Source: an uncultured Candidatus Saccharibacteria bacterium
Lineage (GTDB): Bacteria; Patescibacteriota; Saccharimonadia; Saccharimonadales; JAGPDM01
Length of the DNA: 43,114 nt
Assembly (NCBI GenBank): GCA_964519575.1
Contig: CAZFKV010000001.1
Coordinates: 1 to 43,114, forward strand
Direction: 5' to 3'
Part shown: positions 21,126 through 28,323 of the stretch, piece by piece
Layout: each line of letters begins with the position of its first letter
How positions within the stretch are numbered: the stretch's first letter is position 1
Notes under the pieces: model-generated
Told to the model about the DNA's origin: nothing
The model's input: only the letters and a program-made list of their open reading frames with translations
Databases searched by the model: none
Program-made: the position numbers and the translations under genes

Positions 21126-23999
21126 TTAAACCTTCTGTAGACTTATAGTCACTTCACCATTGCTTACGTTTTCACTAGTTGTAAATGCATAAGTGGTTTT
21201 TGTCAGAGTCTTTGAGAGAGTTTCCTGCATAATTTCATCCTTGTGATTATCGAATGCTCTCTGTAAATCAATATCAGTGGTAGCAAGGCTAAGGTTGATG
21301 CGATTCTCAATGTCGAGACCACTTTTTTTGCGTAGACTTTGAATCCGTCTAATAACATCTCGTGCCACGCCTTCATCAATCAGTGCTTGGTCGAGTTCAA
21401 GGTCCAAGACTATTGTTGGTCTATTACCTTTTTCAACAATTATCGACTTAACATTAATTTCTTCCTGCATAATATCAATCAGTTGATCATCGAATGTTTG
21501 CTTAGAAACAATTTTTGCCGATCTGAGCGGTTGTCTTGTTTTAATCATTGCACTTGCTCTCTGTGATAGTGCGTCTGCAATGAGAATCCTCAAGGTGCTC
21601 ATTTCATGTATTAGTTCATCATCCACTGCTCCGTTTTCGGGCCAATCAAGAAGATGTACTGAATCGGTGTCATCAAGTTTTTGATATAGTTCCTCAGATA
21701 GGAATGGGGTAAAAGGCGCGAGCACGGTACTTAGTCGTACAAGAACATAGTGTAGAGTTCTATATGCGCTATTTTTATCATCATCGTCTTCCGTCTTCCA
21801 GAATCGTTTACGGCTTCGACGAACATACCAATTGCTGGCATCTTCGATAAATACAAGAATTGGCCTCATGGCACTAGGGATATCATAGGAATCCATGTTC
21901 AGTGCAACTTCCTTTGTAAGCTCGTGGACTCGAGAAACTACCCATCGATCGAGTAGATTAGTAAGATCATTTAGTGGATCATCTAAATTGCCATCCCATT
22001 CCCAGTTATCAACCTCAGCATAGAGTGAGAAGAAATCGTACATATTCCAAATCATATTTAGCTTCCTCGATATATCCCCAACATCTTTATCTAGTAAAGA
22101 ATAGTCTTCGCCGTTAAGTAGTGGCGATGAAAGAAGTAGAAATCTCAGCGAGTCTGCACCGTATGTATCCATGAGCTGATTTGGATCAGTATAATTACCA
22201 AAACTTTTACTCATTTTTCGACCGTCATTACCTGCGAGTGTTCCTGTAACGATTACATTATTGAAAGCATGTTTATCAAACAGTCCGACATTAACTGCGT
22301 GTAAATAGTAGAACCAAGCTCGTACTTGTCCGACATATTCCGCAACGAAATCACTCGGGAAACTACGATCAAATTTATCTTTATTTTCAAAAGGATAATG
22401 AAACTGAGCAAAAGGCATCGATCCACTCTCGAACCAACAATCCATCACCTTATCAATTCTTTTATACAGTAATCCGTCAATCGTAAATGTAATATCATCA
22501 ACCCATGGTCGGTGATAATCGTCCAATTCAACCCCGCTTAGTTTCTTCAGCTCAGCGTAGCTTCCAATAACCTTTATGTGTTCTTTCCCTGTACCATCGA
22601 CCGCCTTCCAAACAGGCATTGGAGTCGCCCAGAATCGATCACGACTCAAGTTCCAATCAGGGGCACTTTCAACAGTTTTTTCAAATCGACCATTTTTTAT
22701 ATGTTCTGGGAACCAATTAATGTCCTCGTTATGGGCAAGCATTTGTTTACGTTGTTTCTCAATACGCATGAACCAACTCGGGTGAGCACGATACATAATC
22801 TTTGTGCCACAACGATGACAATGCGGATAGCTGTGCGTAATATAATCAATTTTCCAGACAATTCCCTTTGCATGTAGTGTTTTTGCTATGTCTTTATTAA
22901 CATCCCAGATCTGGTAACCTTTCCAGTCACCGCTGTTGTAGAATCCATTTTCGTCGATCATGCTCACGATAGGCAGATCTTTCTCTTGAGCTAACAGAAA
23001 ATCTTCCTCGCCATATGCAGGAGCTAAATGCACAATACCACTTCCTTCTTCAGTGGATACATAATCAGCTTCATGCACAAAATGTGCTTTCTCGCCTCTG
23101 TTTTCAAACAATGGTTCATAGCGCTTTCCGACAAGTTCACTGCCTTTGAATTCGCGAATTATTTTAAATGATAACAATGCATGCTTTTCGTCAGTCAGGA
23201 CTGATTCAACTCGATCTTTGACAAGGATAAATCGATCTCCGTTAACTTCAATTTCGTTATAAATTAGGTCTTTATTAACAGCCACAGCTGTATTAGCTGG
23301 CAATGTCCAAGGTGTGGTTGTCCATGCCAGTAAACTAGCGTCGTTGTCCACTAGTTTAAACTTTACGAAAACACTTGGATCAGTTACATCTTGATAGGAA
23401 TTATCCATGGCTATTTCGGCTTTGCTCAAAGGTGTTGCACAACGGATGCAATACGGCAGCACCTTTTCGCCTTCGTAAATCATGTCTTTGTGGTGAAGTT
23501 CTTTAAACGCCCACCAAACAGATTCCATATAGTCGCGATCCATCGTTTTATAGGCACCCTTAAAATCGACCCAACGACCAATTCGATCTATGGTGTCTTC
23601 CCATTCGCTCCCCGTCTGAACCATGCTTTCACGACAGGTGTTGATATAGGTCTCTAGCCCTACCTTTGCCACATCGCGCTTGTCCTTGATGCCAAGTTTT
23701 TTCTCGACAAAGTTCTCAGCAGGCAAACCATGGCAATCCCAGCCCCATACACGCTCAACTCGTTTGCCTTTCATAGTCCAATAGCGAGGAATAGCATCTT
23801 TTACAATCGAACTCAGAAGAGTTCCGTGATGAGGTACTCCTGTTATAAACGGTGGACCATCATAAAATACATATGCATTAGTCTTCGGACGCTGCCGTAC
23901 AGAACGTTCAAAAATCTCATTTTTCTTCCAGTACACTACAAGATTCTTTTCATATTCTATTGGCTTTTTCCGACTGTTCTTTTTGAAGCGTTTTGCCAC
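21126..23999 (-). CDS. ileS: Isoleucyl-tRNA synthetase (type-2 / eukaryote-like architecture)
   Basis: 957 aa. YDGPPFITGVPHHGTLL (HIGH-type), WDCHGLPAE, a CP1 editing insertion and KMSKS (GRKMSKSFGNY). No Cys-rich zinc C-terminus. GTG start at 23999 with AGGAG 6 nt upstream. Confidence 0.95.
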   Translation of the reverse strand: MAKRFKKNSRKKPIEYEKNLVVYWKKNEIFERSVRQRPKTNAYVFYDGPPFITGVPHHGTLLSSIVKDAIPRYWTMKGKRVERVWGWDCHGLPAENFVEKKLGIKDKRDVAKVGLETYINTCRESMVQTGSEWEDTIDRIGRWVDFKGAYKTMDRDYMESVWWAFKELHHKDMIYEGEKVLPYCIRCATPLSKAEIAMDNSYQDVTDPSVFVKFKLVDNDASLLAWTTTPWTLPANTAVAVNKDLIYNEIEVNGDRFILVKDRVESVLTDEKHALLSFKIIREFKGSELVGKRYEPLFENRGEKAHFVHEADYVSTEEGSGIVHLAPAYGEEDFLLAQEKDLPIVSMIDENGFYNSGDWKGYQIWDVNKDIAKTLHAKGIVWKIDYITHSYPHCHRCGTKIMYRAHPSWFMRIEKQRKQMLAHNEDINWFPEHIKNGRFEKTVESAPDWNLSRDRFWATPMPVWKAVDGTGKEHIKVIGSYAELKKLSGVELDDYHRPWVDDITFTIDGLLYKRIDKVMDCWFESGSMPFAQFHYPFENKDKFDRSFPSDFVAEYVGQVRAWFYYLHAVNVGLFDKHAFNNVIVTGTLAGNDGRKMSKSFGNYTDPNQLMDTYGADSLRFLLLSSPLLNGEDYSLLDKDVGDISRKLNMIWNMYDFFSLYAEVDNWEWDGNLDDPLNDLTNLLDRWVVSRVHELTKEVALNMDSYDIPSAMRPILVFIEDASNWYVRRSRKRFWKTEDDDDKNSAYRTLHYVLVRLSTVLAPFTPFLSEELYQKLDDTDSVHLLDWPENGAVDDELIHEMSTLRILIADALSQRASAMIKTRQPLRSAKIVSKQTFDDQLIDIMQEEINVKSIIVEKGNRPTIVLDLELDQALIDEGVARDVIRRIQSLRKKSGLDIENRINLSLATTDIDLQRAFDNHKDEIMQETLSKTLTKTTYAFTTSENVSNGEVTISLQKV

Positions 24000-24011
24000 T
24001 TGTTTCTCCTA

Positions 24012-24250
24012 AAAATTAAAAAACCGAACTCTCTTTTGTCGAGAGTCCGGCCTAATCGCCAGACGGTACCATCTCCACTTTCACTTGATTCTCCGGTAAC
24101 GACGGATGAACTCGGCAGGTTCTAATTTGCTTCTTGTAAATTACCCTGAGCTTGTCGAATGGGTAGTTGCCTTAAGCAGTTCTTCCTGCTGCGCTGTCCC
24201 CGAGAGAACATCGTGGTCGATAGCCACTGCAAACGCATTTCCAGTACTAA
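24012..24250 (-). promoter_or_regulatory. T-box riboswitch leader of ileS (transcription-attenuation type)
   Basis: The minus-strand RNA contains the T-box sequence AGUGAAAGUGGAGAUGGUACCGUCU (24085-24061). The canonical antiterminator is GAGA-[UGGUACC bulge]-GUCUGGC-GAUUAG-GCCGGAC-UCUC (24075-24041). The mutually exclusive terminator is CCGGACUCUC-GACAAAA-GAGAGUUCGG followed by UUUUUU. An F-box-like CGUUA lies upstream. Ile codons AUC (24221-24219) and AUU (24160-24158) are specifier candidates. Confidence 0.8.
24018..24050 (-). terminator. Intrinsic terminator of the ileS T-box leader
   Basis: 10-bp stem (24050-24041 pairs with 24033-24024, one G-U), 7-nt loop, U6 tract (24023-24018). The ileS SD and GTG follow immediately. 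Confidence 0.8.
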
Positions 24251-24252
24251 CT

Positions 24253-24281
24253 AGTATAAGACGCAAGATTTGTTTACACAA
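24253..24281 (-). promoter_or_regulatory. Candidate promoter of the ileS T-box leader
   Basis: TTGTGT (24281-24276), 17-nt spacer, TATACT (24258-24253) on the minus strand. The -35 element abuts the 3' end of RNase P RNA helix P1. Confidence 0.4.
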
Positions 24282-24772
24282 GATGGCTGTCGGTAAGCCG
24301 GATTCTGTATGCACGAGCTCAGTATGCATTTGCTTGTTTCAGATTACAGATGAAATAAGCGAAAAATAGTTTCTTCTTTTGAAGCTTAATTGAACATTAC
24401 GTTAATGAAGAAAAACAATTTTGCAGCCCTTCATCTGTGAGCTGAAGCTGTGAATGCACATTGAGCTCGTGCACGGTAGTCATCTATCTGGGATGCACAT
24501 TGCTGCACACCTCGTTGCGGTCTAATCATCGACTTCGAGTGAGCACTCGTATGAAATCGATCGCCTTGCAGCGGACAGGGTTTACCTCCTCATGCCGTCA
24601 CCGACATGAGCTGCGGGCTCTTACCCCGCTCTTTTCACCCTTACCACGTAAACGCGGCGGTATTGTTTCTGTGGCACTTTCCCTACGATTACTCGCGGTT
24701 GCCGTTAGCAACTGTCCTGCTCTATGCTGTCCGGACTTTCCTCCCTATCGGGCGACTACCTCGACAGCCATG
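24280..24772 (-). ncRNA. rnpB: RNase P RNA (bacterial type A core) with a large insertion
   Basis: On the minus strand, P4 5' strand GGAGGAAAGUCCGG (24744-24731) and P4 3' strand ACAGAAUCCGGCUUA (24308-24294). P1 is AUGGCUGUCG (24771-24762) pairing perfectly with CGACAGCCAU (24292-24283). P2 is GGUAGUC/GACUACC. Conserved blocks include GGGAAAGUGCCACAGAAA, GGUAAGGGUGAAA, GGUAAGAGC and CAGAUAGAUGACUACC. About 490 nt because of a ~164-nt insert (24310-24473). Confidence 0.9.
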
Positions 24773-24798
24773 TGTAAGTATAGGTCGTTTTTACGCTT

Positions 24799-27576
24799 CT
24801 AGCTACAACCAGTAGTGGTTCCGCAGACACCACAGACATAACAACTTCCTGCTCGCATAGTCATTGCGCCACATTCGACACAGAGAGGTGCAGTCGATTC
24901 ACCCTGTTGTGGCAAGTTACTTTTATGTGTTGACTCTTCAACTGGTTCAATTGCTTCTTTGATCTGATCAGTGATTGGTTTCTCTAATCTTGCATCTGGT
25001 TCGGTTGCCAATAAGGTTGTCTGTTGAGCTTTCAAGTCATCGAGATTACTGATGCCTACCTCGATTTGGTCATCGAAACTCAAATAGTCTTTGCCAATTC
25101 GTTTGAACACATAGTCAACCAGTGAGCTGGTTGTACGAATCTCGACATCATCGGTCAAACCACTTGGAGCAAAACTCATACTAGTAAACATTCGAACATA
25201 AGCTTTGAGAGGTACACCGTACTGCAAACCATGACTAACACTTATCGCAAGACTATCCATTACTCCAGCTAGAGTAGATCCTTGCTTAGCAACCTGCATG
25301 AATAGTTCCGCTGGCGTTCCATCCTCAAACTCACCGACCGTGAAGAAGCCTTTAAGACCGGCAACTCTAAATTCGTAGGTTCTACTGTTTCGAACTTTTG
25401 GAAGCTGCCGGCGATGTGGACTTTTAACCATAAAGCCAGCCTGTGGGGTGTTTACTGCAGCTGTTGCGTCTTGTTCTTCGGCACCATCTTTCTTTGCCAT
25501 GGCGAGAGGCTGAGCAACCTTACAGTTGTCTCGATAGATGGCGACGGCTTTAAGCCCCAGTTGCCAGGCTTCTAAGTGAAGCTGTTCAATTTCTTCAACA
25601 GTCGCTTCTTCTGGCATATTGACCGTTTTACTAATCGCACCAGATAGAAACGGCTGCACTGCACCCATCATCTTGACATGGCCACGATAATGAATAGCAT
25701 TATCACCCATCGAGCAAGCAAATACTGCTTCATGATCTTTCTTTAAGTGAGGTGCACCGAGGATTGATTTCTCGGTATCGATATATTTGACGATATCCTG
25801 CACTTGGCTCTCGTTGTAGCCAAGCTGTCGCAGTGCTCGAGGCACTGTCTGGTTAACAATAATCATGTTTCCACCGCCTACCAGAGTTTTCAGCTTCGCA
25901 AGACCCAGATCTGGCTCAATACCAGTCGTATCACAGTCCATCATAAGTCCAATTGTGCCTGTTGGCGCCAACACACTGGCTTGCGCGTTACGAACTCCAT
26001 ACTGCTGAGCGAGCTCATTAGCGTCATCCCAAGCCTCAGCAGCTGCATCAAGCAAGTCTTCAGCGACAAATGCTGGATTGATGTTATCTACTTCTTCTCG
26101 ATGCATTTTGAGAACATGAAGCATACCTTCTCGGTCGTTGTTATAACCGGCGTGTGGACCAACTCGACGGGAAAGTTTGGCACTTGTTGCATAGGAATGA
26201 CCTGTCATCACAGCTGTGATGGCAGCAGCCTGTGCTCGTCCTTCATCAGAATCATATGGTAAACCTTGTGCCATCAGCAGCGCACCAAGATTAGCGTAAC
26301 CGATACCAAGTTCACGGTAAGCTTTAGCATTCTTAGTAATTTTTTCTGTTGGATACTCCGAATATCCAACCAAAATTTCCTGTGCAGTGAAGACTGTTTC
26401 TACTGTGTGCTTAAAGGCAGGTATATCGAAGCTACCATCGTCATTGAGAAACTTTAGCAGGTTCAACGAAGCGAGGTTACAAGCAGAGTTATCAAGATGC
26501 ATATACTCACTGCAAGGATTACTACCATTTATGCGACCAGCATTTGGTGATGTGTGCCATTTGTTAATCGTGGTATCGAATTGGAGCCCAGGATCAGCGC
26601 ATTCCCAAGCTGCTTCAGCAATCTGTCGCCAAATGTCTCGAGCTGGCTTTGTTTCAATCACTGAGCCATCGGTAACCGCTGTTAGATTCCACGGCTTATC
26701 ATCAACAACCGCCTGCATAAATTCATCTGTTACTCGTACAGAGTTATTAGCATTCTGATACTGAATTGAGTGAATATCGCTTCCGTTGAGATCCATATTG
26801 AAACCTGCTTCTCGCAAGGCGCGGGCTTTGCGTTCTTCGCGCGCCTTACACCAAATAAACTCTTCTACATCAGGGTGATCGACATTCATGATGACCATTT
26901 TCGCAGCACGACGCGTTTTACCGCCGCTCTTAATAGCGCCAGCACTGGCATCCGCACCTCGCATGAAAGAAAGCGGACCTGAAGCATAACCAGCACTTCC
27001 ACCAAGTCTTTCTTTAGATGAGCGAATGCTACTAACATTAAGTCCTGAACCTGACCCGCCCTTGAAGATTAGGCCTTCTTCGGTGTACCAATTCAAGATC
27101 GCTGGCATTGTGTCTTCAACAGCTAGGATGAAGCATGCACTTGCTTGTTGACGTCGGTCTTTGGCGCCGATATTGAACCACACTGGGGAATTAAATGAGG
27201 CTCTTTGGGTTGCCAAAATGTATTTCAGTTCTTGATTAAAGATTTCTGACTCGTCTTCACTAACAAAATATCCTTCTTGGGTGCCATGTCGAGTAATGGT
27301 ATCAACTACCCGATCAATAAGAGTTTTGAGTGATGCCTCGCGATTAGGATCTCCAGGTGTTCCGGAGAAATATTTTTGCGCTACAATATTGGTCGCGTTC
27401 TGTGACCAGTCTTTAGGAAATTCAATATTTTTCTGCTCAAATACTACCTTCTTGGTCATTGGATTCTCAATAAGTGAATCCCGGTGATCCCATTCCATCA
27501 TGTCGTATGGATGAGTACCGGCTTTAGTAAAATAACGGCTCATTCCGAGTGCCGTCGCTAGATCCTGTGGTGACAT
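24799..27576 (-). CDS. nrdJ: Adenosylcobalamin-dependent (class II) ribonucleotide reductase
   Basis: 925 aa. Active-site loop SNPCSEYMHLDNSACNLASLNL and thiyl-radical barrel blocks. Cys-rich C-terminal tail CVECGAMTMRAGSCYVCGVCGTTTGCS. No small-subunit gene nearby. Resembles the long actinobacterial-type NrdJ. Confidence 0.88.
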   Translation of the reverse strand: MSPQDLATALGMSRYFTKAGTHPYDMMEWDHRDSLIENPMTKKVVFEQKNIEFPKDWSQNATNIVAQKYFSGTPGDPNREASLKTLIDRVVDTITRHGTQEGYFVSEDESEIFNQELKYILATQRASFNSPVWFNIGAKDRRQQASACFILAVEDTMPAILNWYTEEGLIFKGGSGSGLNVSSIRSSKERLGGSAGYASGPLSFMRGADASAGAIKSGGKTRRAAKMVIMNVDHPDVEEFIWCKAREERKARALREAGFNMDLNGSDIHSIQYQNANNSVRVTDEFMQAVVDDKPWNLTAVTDGSVIETKPARDIWRQIAEAAWECADPGLQFDTTINKWHTSPNAGRINGSNPCSEYMHLDNSACNLASLNLLKFLNDDGSFDIPAFKHTVETVFTAQEILVGYSEYPTEKITKNAKAYRELGIGYANLGALLMAQGLPYDSDEGRAQAAAITAVMTGHSYATSAKLSRRVGPHAGYNNDREGMLHVLKMHREEVDNINPAFVAEDLLDAAAEAWDDANELAQQYGVRNAQASVLAPTGTIGLMMDCDTTGIEPDLGLAKLKTLVGGGNMIIVNQTVPRALRQLGYNESQVQDIVKYIDTEKSILGAPHLKKDHEAVFACSMGDNAIHYRGHVKMMGAVQPFLSGAISKTVNMPEEATVEEIEQLHLEAWQLGLKAVAIYRDNCKVAQPLAMAKKDGAEEQDATAAVNTPQAGFMVKSPHRRQLPKVRNSRTYEFRVAGLKGFFTVGEFEDGTPAELFMQVAKQGSTLAGVMDSLAISVSHGLQYGVPLKAYVRMFTSMSFAPSGLTDDVEIRTTSSLVDYVFKRIGKDYLSFDDQIEVGISNLDDLKAQQTTLLATEPDARLEKPITDQIKEAIEPVEESTHKSNLPQQGESTAPLCVECGAMTMRAGSCYVCGVCGTTTGCS

Positions 27577-27700
27577 AGCTCCCCCTTTTATTATTTTTTA
27601 GAGTGGTCAATGATAAATCCGTTCTCTAGGCGGATTATCATTAGCGACTACTCTCTCACAACTTTTTGTTTGGTCTTTTTGTCTCTTTATGACCATTAGC

Positions 27701-27729
27701 ATTGTATGCTACAAAAAGATGCGAGACAA
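27701..27729 (-). promoter_or_regulatory. Candidate promoter of nrdJ
   Basis: TTGTCT (27729-27724), 17-nt spacer, TACAAT (27706-27701) on the minus strand, just after the nrdR stop. A perfect 15-bp palindrome TAGCATACAATGCTA (27711-27697) overlaps the -10. Confidence 0.4.
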
Positions 27730-27749
27730 GAGTCTTTAATATTAAATAT

Positions 27750-28205
27750 CTAAGATGATTTTCTTAATCGATCGAGTTCTTTTTCAAAACTCTCAACATC
27801 GTCAAAACTCCTATATACACTTGCGAAACGTACATATGCAACTTCATCAACAGATGCCAATTCACGAAGTACCAACTCTCCAAGTTCACTTGTCACCACT
27901 TCGCTCTCGCCTGCTTGACGCAAGGTTTGCTCAATCCTAGCGACTAATTCCTCTAGCTGCAAACTACTCATTGGTCTTTTTTCAAACGCCCTACTAAGTC
28001 CTGCAAGTAGCTTGTTGCGATTGAAAAGCTCTCTCGTGCCGTCCTTTTTAACTACGACAAGATTAGGTAACTCAATTCGCTCATAGGTAGTAAACCTGTG
28101 TTTGCAATTGAGGCATTCTCTTCGACGTCTTATTGCTCCGGCATCACCAACATCACGTGATTCGATTACTTTGCTTCGCTCTTCATTACACTTAGAACAA
28201 TGCAT
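27750..28205 (-). CDS. nrdR: Transcriptional repressor NrdR
   Basis: 151 aa. N-terminal zinc ribbon MHCSKCN...CLNCKHRFTTYERIE, followed by an ATP-cone domain. Confidence 0.95.
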   Translation of the reverse strand: MHCSKCNEERSKVIESRDVGDAGAIRRRRECLNCKHRFTTYERIELPNLVVVKKDGTRELFNRNKLLAGLSRAFEKRPMSSLQLEELVARIEQTLRQAGESEVVTSELGELVLRELASVDEVAYVRFASVYRSFDDVESFEKELDRLRKSS

Positions 28206-28292
28206 ATAATATCTCCATTTAACCTTTAAAGTACGGTAGTGCTGATATGAGTAAATTCTTGATATTAGCCATATTTAGCGTACCTGGTAATG

Positions 28293-28323
28293 ATTATAGC
28301 TCTACCTATGGTGTTTTTGTCAA
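28293..28323 (-). promoter_or_regulatory. Candidate promoter of nrdR
   Basis: TTGACA (28323-28318) and TATAAT (28298-28293) on the minus strand. The spacer is 19 nt, longer than optimal. Confidence 0.3.

Follow-up and report, generated by a model that had tools for sequence, protein, structure and literature searches.

The DNA analyzed here is a 43,114-nucleotide (nt) stretch of contig CAZFKV010000001.1 from an uncultured "Candidatus Saccharibacteria" bacterium (referred to as the window; coordinates without a contig label refer to the whole of it). It carries an RNase P RNA gene, rnpB, in which a hairpin of 164 nt stands in J2/4, between the 3' strands of helices P2 and P4. The question raised by this locus is what kind of sequence occupies that junction. 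An initial annotation, made from the sequence, had left three answers side by side: a lineage-specific expansion domain, an intervening sequence (IVS) cut out by RNase III-like cleavage to give a two-piece RNA, or an insertion resembling a miniature inverted-repeat transposable element (MITE). Related contigs and loci were fetched for comparison (161 records, designated L001 and so on). The insert is probably a dispensable, strain-variable and recombinationally exchanged IVS-like insertion that replaces an AAA linker and makes a giant P19 helix in a Saccharibacteria rnpB gene otherwise lacking P19. In anatomy, distribution and genomic company, the intervening-sequence reading was the best fit of the three, and an IVS-like rod was also found in helix 45 of 23S rRNA on a related contig.

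An oversized helix at the P19 position of an intact rnpB gene

The gene and the segments on either side of the insert are listed here.

24279-24771, minus strand: rnpB, bacterial type A RNase P RNA (Rfam RF00010, 220.9 bits, E = 1.6e-70, model positions 1-367)
24481-24475, minus strand: 3' strand of P2, GACUACC (cmscan model positions ~313-319), with conserved J18/2, CAGAUAGAU, directly 5' of it
24474, minus strand: G, the single nucleotide between the P2 3' strand and the 5' arm of the insert
24310-24473, minus strand: rod hairpin of 164 nt in J2/4, the P19 position (covariance-model insertion; folding free energy [dG] -59.4, z = -6.41)
24309, minus strand: U, the single nucleotide between the 3' arm of the insert and ACAGAA
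24308-24294, minus strand: conserved J19/4 (ACAGAA) and 3' strand of P4 (UCCGGCUUA), intact (cmscan model positions 336-351); the block reads ACAGAAUCCGGCUUA

The gene is 493 nt long with the insert, and its core is 329 nt. Its score lay well above the RF00010 gathering score of 100 and covered the full model, with P1 to P4, conserved regions CR-I to CR-V and P18 in place. The conserved blocks GGAGGAAAGUCCGG, ACAGAAA, GGUAAGGGUGAAA, AGAUAGAUG and ACAGAAUCCGGCUUA were all found, in keeping with the initial annotation, which had called the RNase P RNA core unambiguous and whose coordinates and sequences for the P2 3' strand, the G, the two arms, the U and the P4 strand proved exact when the sequence was read. 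In the covariance-model alignment, all of 24310-24473 was handled as inserted sequence separating the 3' strand of P2 from ACAGAA and the 3' strand of P4 (model positions 320-335). This was the check proposed for the J2/4 placement, and it agreed with that placement; no part of the segment was assigned to P15 to P18. All conserved core nucleotides are left intact by the insert. The initial annotation had given the linker of E. coli-type RNAs as about 3 nt reading ACG; in the insert-free alleles of this clade it is AAA, followed by the conserved ACAGAA. The P2, J2/4 and P4 region of RNase P RNA adjoins the active site and the protein subunit.

In RNase P RNAs of type B, in many of type A and in those of archaea and eukaryotes, helix P19 occupies the site of the insert. 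P19 lies between the P2 3' strand and J19/4 and P4, varies in length, has been gained and lost sporadically and can stack coaxially on P2 (PMC12974513). When metagenome contigs were scanned with the 18-mer CCCAGATAGATGACTACC (J18/2 plus the P2 3' strand), 31 rnpB genes were recovered. The stretch from GACUACC to ACAGAA mostly comprised either 4 nt (no P19) or a hairpin of 16 to 28 nt, such as CCGGGCAAUAGCCCGA, with two exceptions, the L097 contig (76 nt) and L116 (144 nt). The earlier statement that no bacterial RNase P RNA with a large helix at this position was known did not stand, since P19 sits there and is seen as a hairpin of 16 to 28 nt in other rnpB genes with this P2 strand. Given that the site is that of P19, only the size of the insert (~60 bp versus the usual 5 to 10 bp) is unusual, and not its location.

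Like P19, the insert directly follows the P2 3' strand, directly precedes ACAGAA (J19/4) and the P4 3' strand, and is a simple hairpin that could stack coaxially on P2/P3. It differs from P19 in packing its ~60 bp into 164 nt, in a GC content far below that of the core, and in having arisen in a clade whose default is the absence of P19 (the AAA linker). It also differs in being polymorphic within the species instead of being a lineage trait. By location the insert is a P19; the modest and lineage-characteristic length of that helix was not found, as the insert measures 164 nt and is absent from near-identical strains.

Structure and composition of the insert

The insert is composed of the following stems.

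24473-24462, minus strand: 5' arm of the basal 12-bp perfect stem, UGCACGAGCUCA (from sequence reading and repeat search)
24321-24310, minus strand: 3' arm of the basal 12-bp perfect stem, UGAGCUCGUGCA, the exact complement of the 5' arm
24323-24330, minus strand: 3' arm of the second stem, AAUGCAUA, pairing with 24453-24460 (UGUGCAUU)
24430-24446, minus strand: 5' arm of the middle stem, UUCAGCUCACAGAUGAA, pairing with 24338-24354 (17 nt, 88% complementary)
24370-24413, minus strand: apical part, comprising a UUUCUUC/GAAGAAA stem and a terminal AACGUAAU-GUUCA-AUUA(A/C)G(C/U)UU hairpin

The basal and second stems together form ~22 bp (12 to 13 bp plus 8 bp) with a single A/C mismatch, and the flanking G24474 and U24309 could form an extra G-U closing pair. 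In the repeat search, the terminal arms extended to 21 nt at 90% complementarity, and inner stems were recovered at 24338-24354/24430-24446 and 24370-24379/24404-24413. The arm 12-mer occurred at two sites only in the window, and at least two matches were found in 0 of 100 shuffles. The predicted fold of the insert is a single rod of 60 bp with a dG of -59.4 kcal/mol, compared to -33.3 ± 4.1 for shuffled sequences (z = -6.41). The insert stayed an independent domain when the whole 493-nt rnpB was folded, and its region gave the most stable 180-nt fold of the window. Both repeat search and fold agreed with the annotated perfect 12-bp closing helix and with a rod continued by inner stems that include UUUCUUC/GAAGAAA. 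The GC content was 37.2% for the insert, 54.4% for the rnpB core and 40.8% on average for the window, so that the description of the insert as visibly AT-rich applies relative to the core but not relative to the genome, of which its composition is typical.

No Pfam-annotated ORF and no promoter were found within the insert. An ORF of 62 amino acids (aa) at 24141-24329 on the minus strand, which gene prediction reports for several of the related contigs, starts in the 3' arm of the insert and spans the 3' end of rnpB into the leader of the next gene. It had no Pfam hit on record, its start is gone in insert-free alleles, and it was treated as spurious, probably a gene-calling artifact.

Presence and absence of the insert among closely related strains

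An exact look-up of the NrdR protein returned ten metagenome contigs (L001 to L010, from ENA, NCBI and Logan assemblies), and NrdR was identical in all of them. The insert was present, with a few single-nucleotide polymorphisms (SNPs), in seven independently assembled contigs that came from different samples and assemblers. In L001 and L009, which have the identical NrdR, rnpB is 333 nt long and insert-free, and the junction reads ...GACUACC-AAA-ACAGAAUCC; such insert-free alleles scored 248 to 255 bits against RF00010. The filled alleles read ...GACUACC-G[164 nt]U-ACAGAAUCC, with AAA replaced and no target-site duplication.

DNA distances in nrdJ, the ribonucleotide reductase (RNR) gene beside rnpB, placed the contigs in two clades ~9% apart. 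All of clade A (the window, L002, L004 and L006) contained the insert. Within clade B, it was found in L003, L005 and L010 and was missing from L001 and L009, and nrdJ of the latter two differed from that of the insert-bearing three at 16 to 33 of 2,778 nt. The presence of the insert was independent of the variant of the neighboring rnpB helix (that of L003 equals that of L001, and that of L005 equals that of L009) and of the downstream flank.

More distant relatives were found through RNR homologues in a protein index, with nrdJ/RNR serving as the marker of relatedness. The J2/4 insert was absent from L091 (99% RNR amino acid identity), L093 (94%), and L095 and L104 (81%). From these empty sites, the lack of P19 was likely the ancestral state and the insert a gain. 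The best RNR matches in GTDB representative genomes were all metagenome-assembled genomes of Candidatus Saccharibacteria/Saccharimonadales at ≤72% identity, which identifies the organism as a member of the Saccharibacteria (TM7, Patescibacteria) lacking a close representative among those genomes. None of the 80 Saccharibacteria loci taken from GTDB (RNR identity ≤72%) had rnpB beside nrdJ, and they were thus of no use for the comparison of rnpB. One related contig is labeled as a wastewater metagenome.

Divergence along the locus was mosaic, amounting to 2 to 3% in nrdR and the 5' half of nrdJ, 12 to 20% in the 3' half of nrdJ, and 11 to 24% at the 5' end of the downstream aminoacyl-tRNA synthetase (aaRS) gene. 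This mosaic across nrdR, nrdJ, rnpB and the synthetase gene points to frequent homologous recombination among these Saccharibacteria strains.

Optional inserts in the rnpB genes of relatives

Inserts in the rnpB genes of relatives were located by anchoring on the conserved rnpB blocks, and the extra segments were then folded.

L091:6808-7587: rnpB of L091/L092 (RNR 99%; JGI 3300009873, Ga0131077_10000499), without a J2/4 insert
L091:6828-6993: P3 insert, a 166-nt rod hairpin
L091:7044-7343: P9-loop insert, 300 nt, with closing stem CCCAGCACCUUUCAG/CUGAAAGGUGCUGGG
L091:7077-7331: intact GIY-YIG ORF of 84 aa (Pfam PF01541, E = 7.5e-14), inside the P9 insert
L096:6282-6817: rnpB of L096 (= L097 and L115; RNR 81%), with a 143-nt P12 insert and a near-perfect J2/4 hairpin of 77 nt whose sequence is unrelated to that in the window
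L104:3128-3575: rnpB of L104 (= L105 and L106; RNR 81%), with a 123-nt P9 insert
L098 (RNR 83%): rnpB with a short P19 of 24 nt
L116:6000-6640: rnpB of an unrelated organism (Ga0315297_10008518), with a branched P19 of 144 nt and a large insert in the P9 region

Optional hairpins thus recur at peripheral sites of rnpB in this clade (P3, P9, P12 and P19). Certain of these inserts were related to one another. The L096 P12 insert had ends homologous to those of the L104 P9 insert, matching at 30 of 36 and 27 of 35 positions (end-score z = 12), which indicates one element family at two different helices. A closing stem, CCC(U/A)GCACCUUU, was common to the ORF-less J2/4 hairpin of L096 and the GIY-YIG-bearing P9 insert of L091, with one compensatory A-U/U-A swap (0 of 400 shuffles; z = 5.3, a value inflated because the scores of the two arms are not independent). 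Between the window insert and the inserts of relatives' rnpB genes, no significant similarity was found by alignment against shuffles or by blastn. A candidate kinship with the short P19 of L098 (GCAC...GUGC versus GUGCAC...GUGCAU) was weak (z = 3.0, 4 of 400 shuffles) and was kept as a lead only.

Inserts lowered or broke the detection of rnpB by the covariance model (the Rfam alignment of L091 rnpB was partial, at 137 bits, and L116 was missed), which matters for the use of rnpB as a completeness marker for bacteria of the candidate phyla radiation (CPR). In L091, a protein gene is nested in the gene for RNase P RNA. In L116, short repeats of the GAACA/GAAGAAC type surround the P9-region insert, and the gene was not reported by Rfam at the curated threshold.

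Comparison with intervening sequences and other RNA gene insertions

IVSs of 23S rRNA stand in helices 25 and 45 and are excised by RNase III without religation. The rnpB insert resembles them in being an AT-rich hairpin of 100 to 200 nt that replaces a few nucleotides (AAA) at a surface position in an essential structural RNA, with a long and near-perfect basal duplex. Its occurrence is sporadic at the strain level (seven contigs with and two without, all with identical NrdR), which is consistent with lateral exchange. The sister insert of L091 contains a small GIY-YIG ORF, as some IVSs contain an ORF. The two differ in the host gene, here rnpB, and in that RNase III excision is known for 23S rRNA and predicted here.

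Hairpins of this form were also present in a 23S rRNA gene on a contig that shares an S1-domain protein with the window.

L157:4251-7619: 23S rRNA, ~3,370 nt, on the contig sharing the S1-domain protein of the window; also present in L155
L157:5595-5746: 23S rod 1, 152 nt, AT-rich, dG -61.9, in the loop of the helix at large-subunit (LSU) model position ~1218 (by covariance model)
L157:6246-6333: 23S rod 2, 88 nt, dG -41.8

We take the helix at LSU model position ~1218 to be helix 45, where the 23S intervening sequences processed by RNase III classically lie. The apical part of rod 1 had indels of 37 and 48 nt between strains. The shared 9-mer ACAGAUGAA between the rnpB insert and the 23S hairpins was treated as a chance match. 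In the absence of sequence similarity between them (see below), the kinship of the rnpB insert with the 23S hairpins is one of kind and not of descent. Separately from the two rods, the L157 23S gene has a further ~220 nt of extra length. The 16S-23S spacer (L157:2600-4250 versus L155:3300-4240) contains two tRNA genes and long inverted repeats and shows indels of 204, 55, 246, 175 and 30 nt between these closely related strains.

Optional hairpin insertions in essential structural RNA genes, especially those of CPR bacteria, are already known as a kind. Brown et al. (2015) reportedly described insertion sequences within CPR rRNA genes. In the rnpB of heterocyst-forming cyanobacteria, helix P12 is said (Vioque, 1997) to contain STRR repeats, tandem heptanucleotides that occur genome-wide and are retained in the RNA. 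In both the cyanobacterial case and the present one, a nonconserved and strain-variable sequence lengthens a peripheral helix while function is kept; the window insert differs in being unique, palindromic and placed at the P19 site of the catalytic domain.

Among rRNA insertions of Saccharibacteria, 64 of 66 were short (≤250 bp), not intron-like and without an ORF, and GIY-YIG ORFs in CPR rRNA were found only in non-intron insertions (PMC11270868). CPR rRNA insertions are found at stem-loop tops or bases, and those that are short and occupy known IVS sites are probably IVSs of the RNase III type (PMC11270868). The RNase III gene, rnc, is kept in CPR genomes (PMC12641178). The rnpB inserts share with these rRNA insertions the phylum-level hosts, the short, non-intron form and the occurrence of GIY-YIG in the non-intron class. 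They differ in their target, rnpB (the text of PMC11270868 does not mention RNase P), and in that presence and absence are here resolved between strains with ~99% identical flanking genes. For CPR RNase P RNAs, very long extensions of single helices, for example P15, have been reported, and covariance models failed or needed lower thresholds (Lui, Nielsen and Arkin 2021; PMC8172020), as was seen here in the poor detection of L091 and L116. That study concerned single genomes and reports no within-species presence or absence, no ORF-bearing insert and no case at the P19 site, its text being without mention of P19.

Proposed acquisition and possible processing of the insert

A route by which the insert could have reached its present distribution is a single acquisition in an ancestrally P19-less rnpB, followed by transfer between strains through homologous recombination in the conserved rnpB sequence on either side, much as rRNA intervening sequences spread. 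As RNA, it would form a giant P19 stacked coaxially on P2/P3 and directed away from the active site and the substrate, an orientation that would let the ribozyme tolerate it.

The minimal substrate of RNase III is about two helical turns of duplex. The ~22-bp basal duplex is of about that length and is a plausible RNase III substrate, and for this reason excision of the rod was rated slightly more likely than its retention. With the rod excised, RNase P RNA would consist of two pieces, a 5' piece of ~300 nt and a 3' piece of ~35 to 45 nt (the 3' strands of P4 and P1) joined by P1, P4 and the stub of P19, while sister strains would make the RNA in one piece. The fuller proposition is that RNase III discards the rod to give a noncovalent two-piece RNase P RNA and, jointly, that P3, P9, P12 and P19 have been colonized by a family of mobile hairpins, one with a GIY-YIG gene. 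We hold it tentatively, at somewhat less than an even chance.

Several observations weigh against the interpretation of the insert as a dispensable, exchanged IVS-like sequence. The insert diverged by just 1 to 4% between clades despite flanks (the 3' half of nrdJ and the 5' end of the synthetase gene) that diverged by 11 to 24%. Recent recombinational exchange through the conserved rnpB core and constraint on the sequence, that is, purifying selection, would each account for this low divergence, and the values fit both equally. The five distinct insert alleles have eight variable sites, five of which fall in the rod's apical third (~24372-24417), and are too few for an analysis of covariation. 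The junction is not that of a clean insertion, as AAA is replaced by G...U. No similarity above that of shuffled sequences was found between the rnpB insert and the L157 23S hairpins (52 of 300 and 12 of 300 shuffles reached the scores). L157 itself is linked to the strain group of the window by the identical S1-domain protein and by sample, and it has no overlap with the rnpB locus. Finally, the host genome may hold further copies. A search for the arm pattern TGCACGAGCTCA-N{125,155}-TGAGCTCGTGCA found no match among GTDB representative genomes, JGI metagenome contigs or IMG/VR, but these collections evidently do not contain the insert-bearing contigs of this species (the metagenome collection is without the contigs of L091 and L093), and the result says little about the host genome.

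Alternative explanations

A selected, functional expansion domain, in which the long P19 is retained and useful (by stabilizing the P2/P3 stack, binding protein or compensating for a reduced periphery), is unlikely. The 96 to 99% conservation of the insert between clades, next to flanking coding DNA that is 11 to 24% diverged, is what such a domain would lead one to expect, and one stem substitution, the A-to-G change in the second stem of L005 and L010, keeps pairing (A-U to G-U). Against this, at least one allele change, U to C in the middle stem of L005, breaks a pair. Further points in favor of such a domain are that P12 and P3 are very short in the window rnpB, that P19, which stacks on P2, is a natural helix position (PMC12974513), and that large helix extensions are known in CPR RNase P RNAs (PMC8172020). 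However, near-identical strains and relatives at 99% and 94% RNR identity do without the insert, and other relatives have unrelated sequences of 24, 77 and 144 nt at the same site as well as optional inserts at other helices. The presence/absence polymorphism among near-identical strains speaks against the lineage-specific expansion domain of the initial annotation as a fixed feature.

It is distinctly doubtful that the insert is a nonautonomous, MITE-like element that was mobilized in trans by a transposase or nuclease and landed in a tolerant spot of rnpB. Such an element could account for the perfect 12-bp terminal inverted repeats and the presence/absence polymorphism, for sister elements with homologous ends at different helices (L096 P12 versus L104 P9, as above), and for the closing stem shared by the L096 J2/4 and L091 GIY-YIG P9 inserts, which resemble a miniature and autonomous pair. 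The complementarity, however, spans the whole element, which is itself the hairpin and not a segment bounded by repeats at its ends alone. The lack of a target-site duplication and the replacement of AAA are likewise at odds with the MITE-like insertion proposed initially. No second copy of the insert was found in the 43-kb window, and blastn against the 161 fetched records (1.47 Mb of related sequence) returned only rnpB copies; the complete genome of the host extends beyond the sequence covered by this count. The scans for the arm pattern in the three collections named above gave nothing, nor did blastn against phages and plasmids, and no transposase gene is adjacent.

Removal with religation, by which a self-splicing intron or self-cleaving ribozyme would restore a continuous P19-less RNA, is highly improbable. 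Group I and group II introns are frequent invaders of CPR genes for rRNA and tRNA (PMC11270868, PMC8172020), and the sister insert has a GIY-YIG ORF, but a simple rod of 164 nt is too small for a group I or II core, and GIY-YIG ORFs of CPR rRNA sit in insertions that are not intron-like (PMC11270868). A scan of 23900-24900 against Rfam at E ≤ 1 found no intron or ribozyme family; besides rnpB, it returned a weak small RNA match in the core and two spurious matches to long-hairpin microRNA models (31.7 and 18.3 bits, far short of the respective thresholds, 171 and 200). An assembly artifact or a dead rnpB pseudogene can be dismissed: palindromes can in principle come from assembly errors, but no actual support for this was found, the seven independent assemblies that carry the insert with a few SNPs exclude misassembly, the rnpB core is intact at 220.9 bits with all conserved regions, and the gene keeps its position in all relatives that share the nrdJ-rnpB-aaRS order.

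Implications of the allele pair

The locus provides a natural pair of alleles, with and without the 164-nt rod at the P19 position, in near-identical genomes. With this pair, one can test how much added RNA the catalytic domain tolerates, and whether a bacterial RNase P RNA can function in vivo in two pieces after RNase III processing, as is the case for 23S rRNA. The CPR habit of optional insertions in rRNA genes is extended here to a third essential structural RNA, with inserts at four rnpB sites in the same clade, one of them containing a GIY-YIG ORF. In the full-text literature searches that were made, no description was found of a strain-polymorphic IVS-like insert at the P19 site of a bacterial rnpB, of an rnpB with a GIY-YIG ORF in P9, or of a fragmented bacterial RNase P RNA.

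Genomic neighborhood of rnpB

The genes flanking rnpB include nrdR, nrdJ, a class I aaRS gene, ftsW, ftsZ and ftsA, and other housekeeping genes of the window are parAB, rpsB, tsf and prfA. The features nearest to rnpB are as follows.

24799-27576, minus strand: nrdJ, class II ribonucleotide reductase (Pfam PF02867/PF08471), 27 nt upstream of rnpB
24010-24270, minus strand: synthetase leader, ~260 nt, with a terminator-like hairpin and U-run at 24053-24021 just before the start codon; separate from the insert
21126-23999: class I aminoacyl-tRNA synthetase, downstream of rnpB

In comparisons of 21126-28300 with L003, L005, L001, L091 and L093, blocks of 2 to 3% divergence lay beside blocks of 12 to 40%. 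The synthetase leader contains a T-box-like GGUGGAGAUGGUACCG motif; no T-box was matched in it by Rfam at E ≤ 1, and the leader may contain either a diverged T-box or an attenuator of another kind. In some clade B strains, an extra ORF of 155 aa encoding an AAA_33/Zeta-toxin-like kinase stands between rnpB and the synthetase leader (L001:9789-10256 and L005:5919-6386, and also in L009 and L010). This ORF is absent from the window and represents a strain-variable indel at the same locus.

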